Position numbers: made by a program | In this document: positions 9,001 through 21,000 of the stretch, piece after piece | Layout: every line of letters starts with the position of its first letter | Numbering within the stretch: position 1 is the stretch's first letter | NCBI GenBank assembly: GCA_963976765.1 | Contig: CAXBME010000009.1 | Location: 124,001-188,000, forward strand | Direction of reading: 5' to 3' | DNA length: 64,000 bases | Source of the DNA: an uncultured Planctomycetaceae bacterium | GTDB lineage: Bacteria > Planctomycetota > Planctomycetia > Planctomycetales > Planctomycetaceae

Positions 9001-12000
9001 ATTAACGAAGGACGACTACGCGATTTTCGTTCCGGAACTGGAACAATGGATCGTACGCCACGGAAAGATTCGCATCCTTTTCGACATGGTCGATTTTCAT
9101 GGCTGGACGGTCAGCGCCGCGTGGGAAGACTTGAAGCTGGGTATGAAACATTTCAGCGACATTGAGCGAGTCGCCATGATCGGCGACAAGACCTGGGAGC
9201 ACGGCATGGCGACGTTCTGCCGTCCGTTCACCAGGGCGAAGGTTCGTTACTTCGACCGTGCCGACGCCGACAAGGCAGAAACGTGGATCTCCAGCGATGA
9301 GTAGAAATCAGAGTACTACTCGATGTCAGCGAAGTATGTCGCCAGCAGGACAATTTCGGCGCGGTCACTGGGTGAACTGACCTGCTTCAGGATCGAAGGC
9401 TCGAACGCGTGCCGTCTGGTCGTCGACAAGCCACGCGTGCAGGCTTAGCTGCCCGGTCGCCAGTTGTTTGCTGATAAATCGATGCGACTGGAGATTTTCG
9501 AGCTGCAGTAACATGTGTTCCTGGACAAGCAGTTCGAAGAATTCCCGGTCGGTGGCTTGCGGATAGTGTTGTTCGACAATGCTGAGCGTTCGGCAAACGC
9601 ACAAGTCCCGACTCCGTCGCTGGGCGAGGTTGGCCAGAACGGAGCAACACGTGTGACCACAAAGAATGATGTGTTGGATCTCATGCACCGCCATGGCAAA
9701 TTCGATGCTTCCCAGAAAGGCATCCGTCTCACCCGGGCGAGCCACGGAAGCAGCCAGGTTCTGCACCACGACGAACTGATCGGGATCGGCGAAAGAAATG
9801 CTGCCAGGCAATCCGCTCTGATCGGAACAAGCCAGCAGCAGAAAATCCTGCCGACCCGACCTTGCCGCCTCAATCAATTCGGACATGGTACCGAAGTGGC
9901 GCTCATCGAAGTGGTGAATTTCGGGTTGAAGTACGGTCATGAATAGTGGCTACGGTTGAATGGCGTTCAAAGTGACAGCGATCAGTGGCTGTGCGAAACC
10001 GCCAACTCATCATCCGGTGCAAAATGGCCGATGCTCATGACATCGACCGTTTCGACGCAGGCTGTCACGTGCTGATCGGGAAGAATGTCTTGGCGCAGTC
10101 GAACCATGATGTCGCTACAGACTTTCTCGGGAGCGATCACTTCAATTCGGATGTGCTGATTCTCGGGCAGAGAATCGTCGTACAGATTTCTGCGTCCGGC
10201 ACCGGTACACGGCGTCAGCGTGTAGCCCGAAACGCCGCACTGTCGGAGTCGAATCAGCAGGTCATCCTTCAGCGAACGATCAGCCATAACCGTCAGGCGA
10301 CGCACCCGGGCAAGGCCACGTTTGCGGGCGGAATGTGAGTCCGGTGAAAGAGGCTGCAGAGTATCGAGGCCACGAACCTCGAATGTCAGACCTTCGTGTT
10401 CGAAGTCGCGCTGCATTTCATCCAGCTTCTCCATCACGCTGTGATCGACAAGTTGTGCGTTCGAGACATCGACGATCAGGTTGCGATGCTGGATCAGCCC
10501 GATCTGTTCGATCTGACGTCGAAACGGAATCCAGTTGCTGAACACCGCTGATTCGCGAGCGATAATCACGCTGGTCTCTGCGTTGACCTCTTCGACTTCC
10601 AGGTACGGTTTAAACATCGATTTCAGAGGCACTCCGTTCGAGATGTGAATGACCATCTTCAGAATGATGCCGGCCGCGACCCCGATCAGCAGGTCTTCCA
10701 CCAGCACAACGACCAGCGTCGTCAGGAAGATGGCCAGCTGTTCCTTGCCGATCCGGTAGACGTGAATGAATTCGTTCGGGTGAGCCAGGCGGGACCCCGT
10801 GTAAACCAGCATCGCGGCCAGAGCGGCCAGCGGAATTCGGTGCAGCACTGTCGGAATCAGCGCCACGCACAGCAGCAGGAAGATGCCGTGCCACATGTCG
10901 GCAAAGCGCGTTCGGGCTCCGTTGTCGATGTTGGCTTTCGATCGCACGATTTCGGAGATCATGGGTAGACCACCAACCATCGCCGCACACAGATTCGCCG
11001 TTCCCACCGCGATGATGTCGCGGTCCATGTTCGTCTTGCGTTTCCACGGATCGAGCAGATCGACGGCTTTGGCACTCAGCAGCGATTCCAGGCTGCCGAT
11101 CAGGAAGAACATCATCACCCACTTCCAGGCAACGGGCTGAGTAAGTGCTGCGAAGTTCGGCAGCGTGATTTCGTCGAACATCCCGAAGACGCGGTCCGGC
11201 ATGTTCACCAGGTACTGCTCGCTGAGCTGGTACTGATGGCCGGCAAGTTCATACGGATGCTTGTGCAGCAGGTCGAAGCCCATACCCATCGGCACAGCCA
11301 CCAGCAGCACAATCATCGGAGCCGGGAGCACTTTCAGCGGGCCGACTTTGCTCTTGAACGAGGGCCACAGAAACATGATTAACAGGCTGACGACGCCGAC
11401 CGCCGCGATGGCCGGGTTCGCCTCAGCGATGTAGTGCGGAATCTGCCGAACCATCTCCATCGGTGCCGCGCTGGGAGCACGACCAGTCGCCGGATCAATC
11501 ACGCCCAGTGCAAACGGAATCTGCTTCACCAGAATGATGACACCGATCGCCGCCAGCATCCCGTGGACGGCGGCCGTCGGAAAGAACTCGCCAAGGATGC
11601 CCGCTCGAAACAGACCAAACAGAATCTGCAGGACGGCGGCGGCAACACCAACGGCCAACGCCGCTTTATAGGCATCCGGATTGCCGGCCCCGCCGAATTC
11701 ATTGATACAGCCGACCGCGATCACGATCAGACCAGCGGCCGGACCCTTAATCGTCAGCTCGCTGTTACTGATAAACGTCGTGACGAGCGAGCCGATGATC
11801 GCTGTGAAGATTCCGGCGATCGGCGGATAGCCACTGGCAATCGAAATCCCCAGACACAGTGGCAGGGCGATCAGAAAAACCAGCAGGCCCGACGTCAGGT
11901 CCTGCTTCATGAACTTTTTAAAGCCAGCAATGTTGCCGTGTGGTGTGTCGCCGGATTGGTTGGCAGTGGATTCCGACATTGGTTGGGTCTCTGTTTCAGC

Positions 12001-18000: not shown

Positions 18001-21000
18001 CTGTCGACGCGTCCCAAGTCCGTCGATCTGTTCGGCATCGTGCTCGCCGAGATCTTCGTTGAGCACCGCTTCCAGATCGGCCACGATGATGCGACCGCTG
18101 TCGAGCAGTTCGCGGTACTTAGCTTCCGGAAAGTACGGATTCGCTCCGAAGCGTTCCTGAGCCGCCTTGACTGCTTCGTGAAACGTCAGGTCTTCAAACG
18201 CGTGCAGCGTGTTGTGATGAACGAAGACTTCGATCGGCCCCTGAGCCGGCAGAAAGTGGGCGGCATGTTCGACCAGATGCCGCAATTCGGCATGCTGGTC
18301 GGAGCTGGAGTGTGTTTCTTCTGTCTCGACGGTGCTGACCACGGTGACTTTCTGGTGACTGTGAATTCCTGACGACTGACTCGAAGGCCGATGGCTGGCG
18401 TTTTTTTGCTGCAACTGCGGAGTGGTCGTTTGCCCCGATTTAAACGTCCAGCCGCGCAAACTGTTGTAAGACGATTGTCTCAATCATTCCCGCGTCCGCA
18501 CAGTCAGTAGAACGATTGGAACAATTGCTCTACCCATCTGTGCCTGCCCGCTGGTTCGGCTCGCTTCAGCAAGTTCGAACACCGCGCTCAGAGCCTGACA
18601 GCCCCCAGTGGCAAGGACTGTGCCAAAGTTCTCGCAAACCAAAACAGTCGCCTGAAGTGCGGCCCTCAGAGCCTGGTGATTGATTGCCACCGGCACTGCG
18701 GGCTGTTGATTTCCCGCCTGTGGGCTTGCTCGCTTCCTGCCGACGCGTCGCCCCGATACCAACCAAATCGGTATTGAATGCCCGCGTGGTTAATGGACAG
18801 CAGACCCTCGTCACAGAACCTGGCGGCCGCAAAAGTGCAGGTCTCTGCCGAGAGTCTGCAATTATTTGCAGATGCAACCGCGGTCAGGCTGCCAGCTGAA
18901 CCTGGTACTGTCGCGTCTGGCCGTGCTGCTGACTTACCAGTGGCAGCACCTGCTGAAGGTCCAGCAGATTCAGACCGACCTGATCGAAGAAGTCACCGGC
19001 CACGGACCAGCCGGTGTGCAGAAAAAGCCAACGGGATGAGCATCGTCCTGTTCGGTCACGAAACTTTCTGCCCTTTGCGACCTGGTTTGATGCCAAGCGC
19101 TCGACCGATCATGAAAGCTGGTAAGGCAGCGAGGAAGCTGCCGAGAGCTCCCATCTTGACGGAGTCCTGAATCGCTCCCGGTTCCGGATACGCGGCCGAC
19201 GACACGAACAGCGCGACCGTGAATCCGATTCCCGCCACCAGGCCCAGAGTGACGACGTGTCGATAGCTCATGCCCTCCGGTCGCTGGAAGCCAAACAGCC
19301 TCTCGCCGATCAGCGTCAGCAGCGTGATGCCAACCGGTTTGCCGATCACCAGGCCGCTCAACACCAGCCACGTTCCCGTACCCGCATTCGACAGCACGAC
19401 TCCCGCGTTCACCAGACCAAACAATCCGAGAATCATTTCAACCGGATTTTTCCACCAGGCGGCGAACTGACTGAGGGTGTCTTCCTGAGTGTGCTCATCA
19501 GGATGAAACAGTCCTTTGTCCTCATGATGTCCGGGCATCGTCGGGATGATCGGGACCAGCCCCAGAGCCGCGTGAATACCAGCCTCGTAAAACGACCACC
19601 AGCTCAGCACGCCGGGAATCAACAGGTACCACCAGAAATTCTTCACACCCGCCCGACGCATCCCCAGTCCAGTACCGATCGCAGCGAGTGTCAGCAGCAG
19701 CAGCCACTCAGGATGCATCGCTTCCTGCGGATAGAAGGCTGCCAGAATCAGCAGCCCGGCCGCATCGTCTGCAATTGCCAGCAGAAGCAGGAAAACAATT
19801 GCAGGATGTTCATGGCCAAAGATCAGCCGGGCGACGAGATAGCTGAACGCGATATCCGTCGCGCAGGGAATCGCCCAGCCGCGACCGAGCGTTGTCTGCT
19901 CACCCAGCAGATGAACTCCCGCGAAGTAGATCAGCGCGGGAGCCAGCACACCTCCGGCTGTCGCCATCAGCGGAGTCGCGGCCGTCTTCGGATTCGACAG
20001 CGGTCCGCCCGGCAACAGAGCCTCCCAGACTTCCTTGGCGGCAATAGCGAAGAACAGAGCCATCGCGACGTCGTTGATCAGAAAATGCAGATCAATATGC
20101 CGCTCGGCAAGCATCGCGAATTCGTGATGTACAAAGTGGTGATACCCGTCCAGGTCGAGGTTGGCCCAGACCAGAGCCGCGACGGCACCGCCAATCAGGA
20201 AGAGCGAGTTCTCCATCAGAAACGCAATGGAACGCCAAACAGGTCCGGAATCTCCGGAAATCGTCATGATCGCCCTCACGTCCTGGGAACTGACATCAAT
20301 GAAAATCCTGATCGCTCCCGGGACGCCCAGTAAGAATCGAAGCAGACAGCTCAGTAAGTGTGCCAGACAGCGAAAACCGTACCGACCATGTTGGTAACCT
20401 GATCGTCATTCGCCTGCCGGCTGCACTGTCGACGACCGTCTCAGATTGCTTTTCACTGAGATCTCAGTTAGATATTTACGACAGTCTCAGACATTGAAAC
20501 ATCCCCAAAGAACACACACATGACGACAACTATTCGCGATCGCAAGACGCGACGTTCAACAGCTCCCGGCGACAATCGGACAGCGGCAGACGCTCGCGTG
20601 CTGCTAAAAGACCGGGCCTATTCAGAGCTGAAGCAACTCATTCAGGATGTCACGTTCAAGCCGGGTGCCTTTCTTTCCGAACGGCAACTGGCCGGACAAC
20701 TGGGGATGAGCAAGACGCCGGTCAAAGCGGCGCTCGAACGGCTGGAAATGGAGGGTTTCATTGCCGTCTCGCCGCAACAGGGCATCGTGGTGCGCGAGCT
20801 GTCGGTGCATGAAGTCGCTGATCAGTTTGAAATTCGTGTCGCTCTGGAATCGCATGTGCTGCGGTCGATCGCGGGACGTCTCACCGACAAACAGGCAGCC
20901 TTTCTGACCGCCAGTATCCGGCAGCAGAAGCAGGCGGCCAAAAGGCGGGATGTCGCGCAACTGGTCGCGCGGGATGCGGAGTTTCACATGCTGTTCTGCG

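Follow-up and report, generated by a model that had tools for sequence, protein, structure and literature searches.

Does an anion carrier encoded in an inorganic-carbon gene cluster bear its own adenylate sensor on the same polypeptide, and what would such a protein do in a bacterium without Rubisco? The question is raised by a 64,000-nucleotide stretch of a planctomycete genome (the window), in which one gene, referred to here as sulP-PII (9982..11979, minus strand; 665 aa), joins a SulP/SLC26 membrane domain, a STAS-like domain and an SbtB-type PII domain. The SulP and PII parts each belong to well-known families. No description of a SulP-PII fusion was found in a literature search that did not take in the review by Selim and Alva (2024) or supplementary files. 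So far, the link between SbtB and the SulP-family carrier BicA consists of one two-hybrid signal, for which a mechanism is lacking in the accessible part of the source (PMC12454622). A conserved natural fusion constitutes independent evolutionary evidence that the SbtB and SulP families cooperate.

A SulP carrier fused to a PII domain

The SulP-STAS-PII fusion is real. Within the 665-aa ORF, Sulfate_transp (Pfam, PF00916) matches aa 25-420 at E 1.2e-55 and P-II (PF00543) matches aa 561-644 at E 8.7e-8 (32.9 bits, cut-off 25), and the SulP, STAS-like and PII parts form one frame without stops, confirming the claim of the genome-wide survey's note that SulP and PII share a single chain. The membrane domain (aa 25-445; 10645..11907, minus strand, as are all parts of the gene), which has the 7+7 fold and whose best Foldseek matches are all SLC26/SulP proteins, is followed by the STAS-like domain (about aa 456-545; 10345..10614), assigned by position and predicted secondary structure; no Pfam STAS match was obtained at E 0.01, and an unfused relative matches STAS_2 at 4e-5. 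A short basic linker (aa 546-556; 10312..10344), conserved in sequence and modelled with low confidence, marks the point where unfused sister SulPs terminate and leads into the PII domain (aa 557-653; 10021..10311). The succession described earlier is reproduced in fresh structure models, which predict a STAS-like unit, a low-confidence linker (aa 543-554) and a beta-alpha-beta-beta-alpha-beta unit (aa 557-647). Foldseek searches with the STAS+PII model retrieved as best matches TTHA0516 (2cz4; E 1e-7), SbtB (6mmo; 9.5e-7) and, lower, CPII (5d4n; 4.6e-5).

A paralog (C34:77206-79200) has the same build and is 75% identical to the window protein; of the survey's pair of 665-aa paralogs, both are fused, but the C34 copy has 664 aa. 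PF00916 and PF00543 occur together in 120 of the 120 homologs listed out of 1177, the C34 paralog among them, in what is a conserved Planctomycetota family. STAS continues into PII in frame in 80 of 80 GTDB loci, these being the best 80 of 263 matches to a STAS+PII query that favours fused forms. Because all of these are fused, the arrangement is not due to chance, and the homologs and GTDB loci also rule out an assembly or frame artefact. Two DNA sequencing runs yielded short contigs only, none of those shown spanning the STAS-PII junction; the top ESM Atlas match (0.84) fell below the lead threshold, and promoter and terminator scans performed no better than chance. The dN/dS of the PII part indicates purifying selection (0.106, compared with 0.042 for the membrane domain, 0.039 for STAS and 0.475 for the tail; eight non-overlapping pairs).

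As judged from sequence relationships, the PII unit is SbtB-type by ancestry and not CPII. In a tree, the fused domains fall within a clade of SbtB-like proteins from planctomycetes (SH-aLRT 99) that also has members linked to sbtA, and free matches of the fused-domain profile are encoded behind sbtA in 9 of 9 fetched cases (10 found), in 16 of 21 and in 2 of 4. CPII aligns with the fused domain at E 0.74 and is absent from the profile matches down to E 0.01, so that of the SbtB/CPII counterpart proposed earlier only the SbtB half stands. The CPII of Thiomonas intermedia (5d4n, 5d4o) has the PII-like fold in common (Foldseek E about 5e-5 to 1e-4) and is likewise linked to carbon-concentration genes, yet it is carboxysome-associated, whereas the host considered here is devoid of Rubisco. 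The nearest solved structure, both by sequence (E 5e-11; 8.5e-19 with the profile) and by fold (E 1e-7 at 33% identity), is TTHA0516 (2cz4), a putative PII-like signalling protein of Thermus thermophilus that is free-standing and, unlike the fused domain, retains the R43/R46/N59 pattern. Like the fused domain, SbtB (6mm2, 5o3r, 7egk; also SbtA2-SbtB2) folds as PII and has short T- and B-loops, but it acts on the cyanobacterial bicarbonate transporter SbtA, a trimer, whereas the fused PII is tied to a SulP, by family trait a dimer, in a host without sbtA: neither SbtA (Sbt_1) nor a free SbtB-like gene was found in the host genome (100% complete), and one SbtA query found none in the 80 loci. 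Canonical PII proteins are distinguished by a long T-loop with Tyr51, a GDGKIF B-loop and an RIRT C-loop. Alignment with the host's two GlnB/K proteins revealed no canonical (GlnB/GlnK) features in the fused domain.

The expected intermediate, an unfused sulP with a separate PII gene behind it, was not present among the loci examined, and the best 150 of 385 representative matches contained no other fusion partner for the PII domain. Long frames in two genomes (G422 and G416), considered as further fusions, turned out to be free genes, and a shared-word search for close free-standing relatives returned one truncated fusion only. Since a quick tree needs two changes, a single origin of the fusion is not established.

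An inorganic-carbon operon in a host without Rubisco

The genes dabA, NuoL-like, NuoM-like, sulP-PII and beta-carbonic-anhydrase-like follow each other on one strand. dabA (15205..18342, minus strand; PF10070, E 1e-232) is likely to start with the GTG at 18342, the longest ORF extending to 18483, and the gene for the DabB/NuoL-like membrane subunit (13589..14980, minus strand) with the ATG at 14980 (longest ORF to 15061); its stop is overlapped by the start of the gene for a third, NuoM-like subunit of 486 aa (12129..13589, minus strand). The zinc ligands and Asp-Arg dyad of DabA are intact (C564, D566, R568, H753 and C768, 1092-aa ORF numbering), as are the catalytic motifs in 35-36 of 36 relatives, and this Cys-Asp-Arg/His/Cys site together with a PF00361 subunit characterizes a DAB pump. 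The survey's description of sulP-PII as abutting a DabA/DabB CO2-uptake operon, and hence its inorganic-carbon gene context, is borne out by an intact three-gene DAB operon upstream on the same strand. The pump resembles the vectorial CO2-hydration pumps DAB1, DAB2 and MpsAB, which are known from heterotrophs, in combining DabA with an intact zinc site and a NuoL-like subunit. In contrast to DAB1, where a small DabC has roughly half NuoM's size, the third subunit here is the 486-aa NuoM-like protein, and whereas DAB2 has two subunits, three genes precede sulP-PII here.

The conserved neighbour of sulP-PII is this DAB operon. Of 80 loci for which 3 kb or more of upstream sequence was available, 59 have a NuoM-like dab gene as the immediate upstream neighbour and 21, the C34 paralog included, have no dab gene in this position. 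A carbonic anhydrase, in contrast, adjoins sulP-PII in only 15 of 52 loci and is neither a constant member of the operon nor its defining neighbour, as had been suggested. Both paralogs do adjoin a carbonic anhydrase gene as stated in the note, but that of C34 lies tail-to-tail with the paralog on the other strand, and the product of the window gene (9365..9940, minus strand; 191 aa), although it possesses the Cys/Asp/His/Cys residues, reads C-S-D-Q-S, in which the Arg partner of the Asp-Arg dyad is missing. A Na+/H+ antiporter gene is located upstream in the window; nhaA adjoins sulP-PII in 1 of 52 loci. A genome search found no RuBisCO_large, in agreement with the survey, and PEP carboxylase is present. 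The genome further encodes two proteins with a DAC domain and eight with a class III cyclase domain. sulP-PII would mark a regulated carbon-uptake operon in Rubisco-free planctomycetes.

Nucleotide pocket and anion site

The ligand-binding residues of the PII domain, flagged by the survey, were checked by transferring pocket positions of SbtB7001, as given in the available part of bioRxiv 10.1101/762807, through sequence alignment; adenine- and phosphate-binding motifs are retained. In the window protein, the adenine pocket is kept (I11=M565, S30=S584, G31=G585, T33=T587, L65=I615), as are the phosphate glycines at the T-loop base (G39=G593, G41=G595). Among 92 loci, G585 is found in 88, T587 in 85 (Ser in three more), Ser or Thr at 584 in 83, G593 in 88 and G595 in 85, and 78 have Arg at 596. 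Of 80 loci, 7 have lost the G-x-G motif but retain the PII domain. R611 and E613 (92 of 92) and E643 (90 of 92), which going by the PII fold we take to face the trimer core, are conserved as well, and position 649, Arg in 68 of 92 relatives, is Ser in the window copy.

Among 36 fused domains, none has R46 and one has N59, compared with 10 of 12 free proteins linked to sbtA for either residue; R43 corresponds to R597 in the window protein, a position at which only 49 of 92 loci have Arg, and Arg (R596) occupies the S42 position of SbtB. The network of R43, R46 and N59 by which SbtB holds its T-loop when this is bound to SbtA is missing from the fused domain. The T-loop tip is the least conserved stretch of the domain (0.43 versus 0.64-0.91; dN/dS 0.21), and the redox R-loop CGPxGC, found in only some SbtBs, is absent from the C-terminus. 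PII-type nucleotide sites lie between trimer subunits (bioRxiv 10.1101/762807, same portion), which requires PII domains of separate chains to come together; action strictly in cis, as the survey had it, is therefore not supported as written, the SbtA-docking residues R46 and N59 also being missing.

In the membrane domain, K78, E298, S302, E343 and R346 are invariant in 107 aligned family members. The survey's assignment to the BicA type does not hold: the BicA profile NF050096 (NCBIfam) yields 108.4 bits against a cut-off of 880, the best NCBIfam scores being those of generic sulP and DauA, all well under cut-off, and only two of the six residues of the BicA site, D258 (E298) and T262 (S302), are chemically kept, the other four being replaced (T69 by A81, G300 by S342, A301 by E343, T302 by I344). 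The site residues are those of the accessible text of PMC13249358, with an inferred one-residue numbering offset in the alignment. BicA (6ki1), a SulP/SLC26 Na+/HCO3- symporter, shares the membrane fold (TMt 0.79; about 20% identity), and the acidic and hydroxyl residues of TM8 but has no PII domain; its C-terminal STAS would correspond to the STAS-like domain predicted here.

E343 aligns with a Ser three residues ahead of the conserved TM10 Arg in SLC26A11 and SULTR4;1. In prestin, an acidic residue at equal spacing from this Arg (S396D/E) mimics the bound anion, according to the consulted portion of PMC9584906. K78 in TM3 may offset the extra acid, giving a net site charge like that of the host's SulP-carbonic anhydrase fusions. 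An obligate K78-E343 pair was rejected, as 120 relatives of one related SulP (L116) show Glu without Lys in the commonest motif classes; Methylococcales relatives likewise possess the Glu and not the Lys. The next SulP clade out in a quick tree (33-38% identity) consists of carbonic anhydrase fusions. The Rv3273 type takes in such fusions as well as can-sulP pairs (Felce and Saier 2004, via PMC6458275), and two of the fusions occur in the host genome (C13, C38). They carry carbonic anhydrase at the C-terminus and Ser/Val in TM3/TM10, in contrast to PII and Lys/Glu in sulP-PII. One unfused sister SulP (L013) is encoded behind sbtA.

A proposed tethered sensor and its alternatives

The reading we prefer, which has about an even chance of being correct, is that a tethered adenylate sensor, itself forming trimers, throttles a SulP carrier linked to inorganic carbon. 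The C-terminal domain would have begun as an SbtB-type gene that a SulP/SLC26 carrier acquired. The carrier would move bicarbonate alongside the DAB CO2-hydration pump, and the PII domains of three chains would trimerise and bind adenyl nucleotides in inter-subunit clefts; as they have no counterpart of R46, they would probably prefer AMP, cAMP or c-di-AMP. As a homotrimer, SbtB binds AMP, ADP, ATP, cAMP and c-di-AMP. In SbtB, the R46A exchange affects ATP/ADP binding more than AMP/cAMP binding, and c-di-AMP is still bound (bioRxiv 10.1101/2023.08.10.552651, in its accessible sections). Homodimers are a family trait of SulP/SLC26 proteins (bioRxiv 10.1101/2022.06.08.495363, as far as its available text goes). 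With SulP carriers dimeric and PII proteins trimeric, PII trimers would bridge adjoining SulP dimers, the smallest closed unit being three dimers and two trimers. Nucleotide state would be conveyed to the carrier via the short linker and the STAS domain rather than by an SbtA-style T-loop plug, and would serve to prevent leak or cycling of the DAB-built bicarbonate pool at low energy charge in a heterotroph using bicarbonate for anaplerosis. A complex prediction with three PII domains and the SulP core scored 0.00, which is no answer and bears neither way on binding. A trimer-forming sensor tethered to a dimeric carrier would pose a structural puzzle, and a one-gene construct would open SbtB-SulP regulation to assay and structure solution. 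It is conceivable, if rather improbable, that PII trimers cross-link SulP dimers to nucleotide-switched hexamers or a lattice that the three-subunit DAB pump joins, an E343-prefilled SulP acting as a valve or as a sensor of pH or membrane potential and so tying CO2 capture in heterotrophs to adenylate charge; with its site prefilled as in prestin S396E, the SulP module would move without substrate.

Alternatively, the PII domain might exert its control in trans, on the neighbouring DAB pump or on some other protein, SulP being a membrane anchor and co-expression partner. This would suit the 59 loci with dab directly upstream and the habit of PII-type proteins to target separate proteins via the T-loop (PMC13249358, excerpted text), and the legend of a figure on the CCM gene clusters of H. 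neapolitanus names a P-II gene (bioRxiv 10.1101/476713). The G-x-G motif is lost in one of these 59 loci versus six of the 21 others, which is not a statistical result because the six losses represent only about three lineages. However, 15 of the 21 loci away from dab retain the motif, the C34 paralog included; no free relative was found to follow dab in the same orientation, one of 21 lying at a contig end and convergent to dab; the tip of the T-loop is too variable for a fixed foreign interface; and 'PII' is unmentioned in the DAB1 and DAB2 structure papers. Regulation in trans is considered unlikely. Much the same weight is given to a membrane domain that carries another anion, exports bicarbonate for pH control or is an E343-prefilled non-transporting sensor, with PII still binding nucleotide. 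Consistent with this are the invariant E343 at the spacing of the anion-mimicking prestin S396D/E (PMC9584906, same portion), NCBIfam matches far below cut-off, the Na+/H+ antiporter gene upstream and Glu-bearing related SulPs (L116) without an annotated Ci gene inside 8 kb. Yet the gene sits in dab operons, its unfused sister follows sbtA, the neighbouring clade comprises carbonic anhydrase fusions and nhaA is a rare neighbour; invariant K78 may neutralize E343, although the Methylococcales relatives manage without it.

Less probable still is that the PII domain is kept mainly for oligomerisation or stability, nucleotide sensing being vestigial or dispensable. Its dN/dS is about 2.5 times the membrane-domain value, and in three family-f40 genomes as well as in L094/L111, L160 and L161 G-x-G is gone while R611/E613 are kept. 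In contrast, both glycines persist in 73 of 80 loci and T587, G585 and R596 are nearly invariant; pure scaffolding would not require these residues. Two of the three family-f40 genomes with G-x-G loss carry hydrazine synthase.

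Architecture, distribution and origin of the fusion

The gene sulP-PII (9982–11979, minus strand) encodes 665 aa in a single open frame in which the Pfam domains Sulfate_transp (aa 25–420) and P-II (aa 561–644) both score above cut-off, and a second copy (664 aa, 75% identity) resides on contig C34 of the same genome (8.57 Mb, completeness 100%; planctomycete to judge from Pfam content and from how its relatives are labelled), bearing out the genome-wide survey's note that SulP and PII share one chain. Two AlphaFold models (mean pLDDT 66 and 78) predict a membrane domain, a STAS-like unit, a low-confidence linker (aa 543–554) and a PII fold, and a Foldseek search with the whole chain retrieves SLC26/SulP structures. 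SulP-PII is a conserved family and not an accident. PF00916-type Sulfate_transp and P-II are both present in all 120 homologs listed of 1177, and PII follows STAS in frame in 80/80 GTDB loci, these being the best 80 of 263 matches to a STAS-plus-PII query, so that the fused share is biased upward and the other 183 lie outside the count. Record titles of the 80 name Planctomycetota, except two that read just 'bacterium'. For a class-wide sample of 401 genomes, a count from the match table gives 54 matches, spread over 53 genomes, within frames of at least 640 aa, and nine of nine long-frame matches among the returned loci are fusions. A phylum-wide sample contains 17 matches in such frames, three of them in family f40, where two of the three genomes with SulP-PII encode hydrazine synthase. 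In the three family f40 loci (L148–L150), the nucleotide motif of the fused PII domain is erased and its R-I-E core retained. Two loci from records titled 'Candidatus Kuenenia sp.' (L080 and L095; label as given) carry a SulP-PII that nests among Planctomycetaceae, together with a dab operon. Pooled dN/dS, from eight non-overlapping pairs drawn from 74 sequences, amounts to 0.042 for the membrane domain, 0.039 for STAS, 0.106 for PII, 0.21 for the T-loop tip and 0.475 for the tail.

Unfused sister SulPs (L011–L015) terminate with the basic motif that serves as linker in SulP-PII, so the PII unit was joined on at the former SulP C-terminus. In a quick tree of membrane domains (57 of 92 rows, four broken rows having been dropped and fused rows thinned), 39 fused proteins constitute one clade (SH-aLRT 98), and a further fused relative, P0162, lies outside it with unfused proteins in between, which suggests either two gains or a single gain followed by losses.

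The PII domain

The fused PII domain descends from SbtB-type genes. In three sets of free relatives, which overlap in two loci, the PII gene lies behind sbtA in 9/9 fetched loci (10 found), 16/21 and 2/4. A short and weakly resolved PII tree (78 rows, 102 columns) nests the fused domains in a clade with planctomycete free proteins (SH-aLRT 99), two free members of which are sbtA-linked. The survey had regarded the unit as the counterpart of SbtB and CPII; this ancestry supports the SbtB part, whereas CPII ranks lower in the Foldseek order for the C-terminal part (TTHA0516 at the top, then SbtB, CPII further down). Planctomycetes also harbor a long (~405-aa) SbtA type paired with SbtB-like proteins (L105, L153, L171–L183); R46 and N59 (SbtB numbering) are absent from the two of these that were aligned, L105 and L153.

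The adenine pocket and the T-loop base are kept. When the SbtB7001 ligand residues given in bioRxiv 10.1101/762807 are mapped by alignment onto 92 loci, the pocket positions G585, T587 and S/T584 are retained in 88, 85 and 83, and the T-loop base glycines G593 and G595 in 88 and 85, respectively. Arginine occupies position 596 in 78/92 loci and position 597, equivalent to R43, in 49/92. In SbtB, an R43-R46-N59 network secures the T-loop inside SbtA (PMC9974498). By comparison, R46 is found in 0/36 and N59 in 1/36 fused domains, versus 10/12 each in sbtA-linked free proteins; the fused domain has no R-loop, and the T-loop tip is its most variable segment. The SbtB variant R46A is impaired in ATP/ADP binding more than in AMP/cAMP binding and retains c-di-AMP binding (bioRxiv 10.1101/2023.08.10.552651). 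Because the R46 equivalent is likewise absent from the fused domain, a similar ligand preference is suggested, unless R596 compensates. All 92 loci have R611 and E613, and nearly all have E643; judging from the PII fold, these residues would line the core of a trimer. The SbtB nucleotide site sits between subunits (bioRxiv 10.1101/762807). A working PII domain must therefore form trimers with PII domains of other chains; with a carrier that is itself dimeric, this would link dimers.

Cysteines are conserved in the fused domain (10021–10311, minus strand) at C591 (86/92), C621 (61/92) and C641 (82/92), the latter two missing from 12/12 sbtA-linked free proteins. These cysteines may have a redox or metal function.

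Operon context and the carrier

Upstream of sulP-PII and on the same strand lies a three-gene DAB operon (12129–18342, minus strand) made up of dabA (PF10070) and two genes for membrane subunits, one NuoL-like and one NuoM-like; a beta-CA-like gene (9365–9940, minus strand) follows downstream. DAB is the constant neighbour: among 92 distinct loci examined, a NuoM-like dab gene immediately precedes sulP-PII in 59 of the 80 that have at least 3 kb of upstream sequence, and where at least 8.5 kb is available it is found in 43/52, compared with any beta-CA in only 15/52. Among cultured carriers of sulP-PII, Thalassoglobus neptunius (L076) has the gene within the dab operon, and Rubripirellula obstinata and Stieleria (L079, L088, L092) have it elsewhere. 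The window DabA has the catalytic residues described in PMC13144422. The third membrane subunit of the operon is a full-size NuoM-like protein (486 aa), as in 43 of the 52 long loci, in contrast to DAB2 with two subunits and DAB1 with a small DabC. The survey's carbonic anhydrase beside each SulP-PII copy holds in part: a CA-like gene adjoins the window copy, with zinc ligands retained and the dyad Arg absent, whereas the C34 gene is placed tail-to-tail on the opposite strand. The same subfamily, with zinc ligands and without the dyad Arg, occurs downstream of sulP-PII at L030, L046 and L049, and several loci also carry an intact beta-CA divergent from dabA. At L088, L091 and L099, a beta-CA lies upstream of SulP-PII and a distinct, distant DAB pair (26–32% identity) downstream.

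An NhaA-type Na+/H+ antiporter gene (19056–20279, minus strand) precedes dabA in the same orientation and adjoins the operon in only 1/52 relatives. A free SpoIIAA-like (STAS-type) gene (8924–9304, plus strand), convergent with the CA-like gene, has a counterpart close to the operon at one further locus, L028. Apparently unrelated genes flank this region (2977–8481, minus strand, and 20520–25333, plus strand): they encode an ABC-2 exporter together with HlyD and outer-membrane efflux proteins, a PhnA/YjdM protein, and a GntR regulator followed by planctomycete cytochrome c and DUF1501 proteins. Neither a RuBisCO large subunit nor SbtA was found in the genome, which encodes PEP carboxylase and DAC-domain and class III cyclase-domain proteins; its P-II matches comprise no more than two canonical GlnB/K proteins and the pair of SulP-PII fusions.

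The carrier is a SulP but not the BicA type that the survey had proposed, scoring 108 bits with the BicA model against a cut-off of 880. Of the BicA site residues given in PMC13249358, D258 and T262 align with E298 and S302, and T69, G300, A301 and T302 are replaced by A81, S342, E343 and I344. K78, E298, E343 and R346 are invariant across 107 sequences. In SLC26A11 and SULTR4;1, the residue aligned with E343 is a serine, three positions ahead of the conserved Arg of TM10; in prestin, S396D/E, at the same spacing from R399, mimics a bound anion (PMC9584906). K78 may offset E343; Methylococcales relatives have the TM10 Glu without the Lys. The Glu feature is common to the unfused sister SulPs and therefore predates the fusion. 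On a Methylomagnum plasmid (L116, 2824–9629), an unfused SulP with this Glu is encoded three genes after those annotated amoA-amoB-amoC. Since SulP-carbonic anhydrase fusions form the next clade out in the membrane-domain tree and one unfused sister (L013) is encoded behind sbtA, context, not sequence, makes bicarbonate the likely substrate. Such SulP-CA fusions are encoded at C13:100369-102657 and C38:28465-30714 of the source genome. They bring to four the SulPs linked to inorganic-carbon modules in this genome, which lacks Rubisco.

Proposed regulation of the carrier

SulP-PII represents a real, conserved and apparently undescribed combination of two known families, which belongs to neither BicA nor SbtB proper and would work in principle like SbtA-SbtB. 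No description of the fusion was found in titles or abstract openings of the literature searched; the PF00916+P-II architecture is visible in public Pfam annotation, and a review of PII-like proteins (Selim and Alva 2024) may mention it. The nearest precedent is an SbtB-BicA two-hybrid signal, reported in the accessible part of PMC12454622 without pull-down or mechanism.

As the most likely reading, we give an even chance to a bicarbonate carrier beside DAB that is restrained by tethered, trimerising, adenylate-reading domains of SbtB type. DAB would build a cytosolic bicarbonate pool serving anaplerosis, alongside which SulP-PII would carry bicarbonate; the tethered domains would trimerise and read the adenylate state, and the trimer would restrain the carrier through the linker and the STAS domain, which would curb leakage or futile cycling of bicarbonate in analogy to the valve role of SbtB (PMC13249358 section 21). 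It seems rather unlikely that the PII domain instead acts in trans on DAB, its constant neighbour. Improbable to much the same degree is a carrier of another substrate, or one with a sensing role; E343 would suit such a protein, and the SulP-CA clade and L013 speak for bicarbonate. A scaffold with vestigial sensing we consider quite improbable: it would suit the loci without a glycine motif, and the motif is lost in only 7/80, in about three lineages, namely in 1/59 with dab upstream and 6/21 without.
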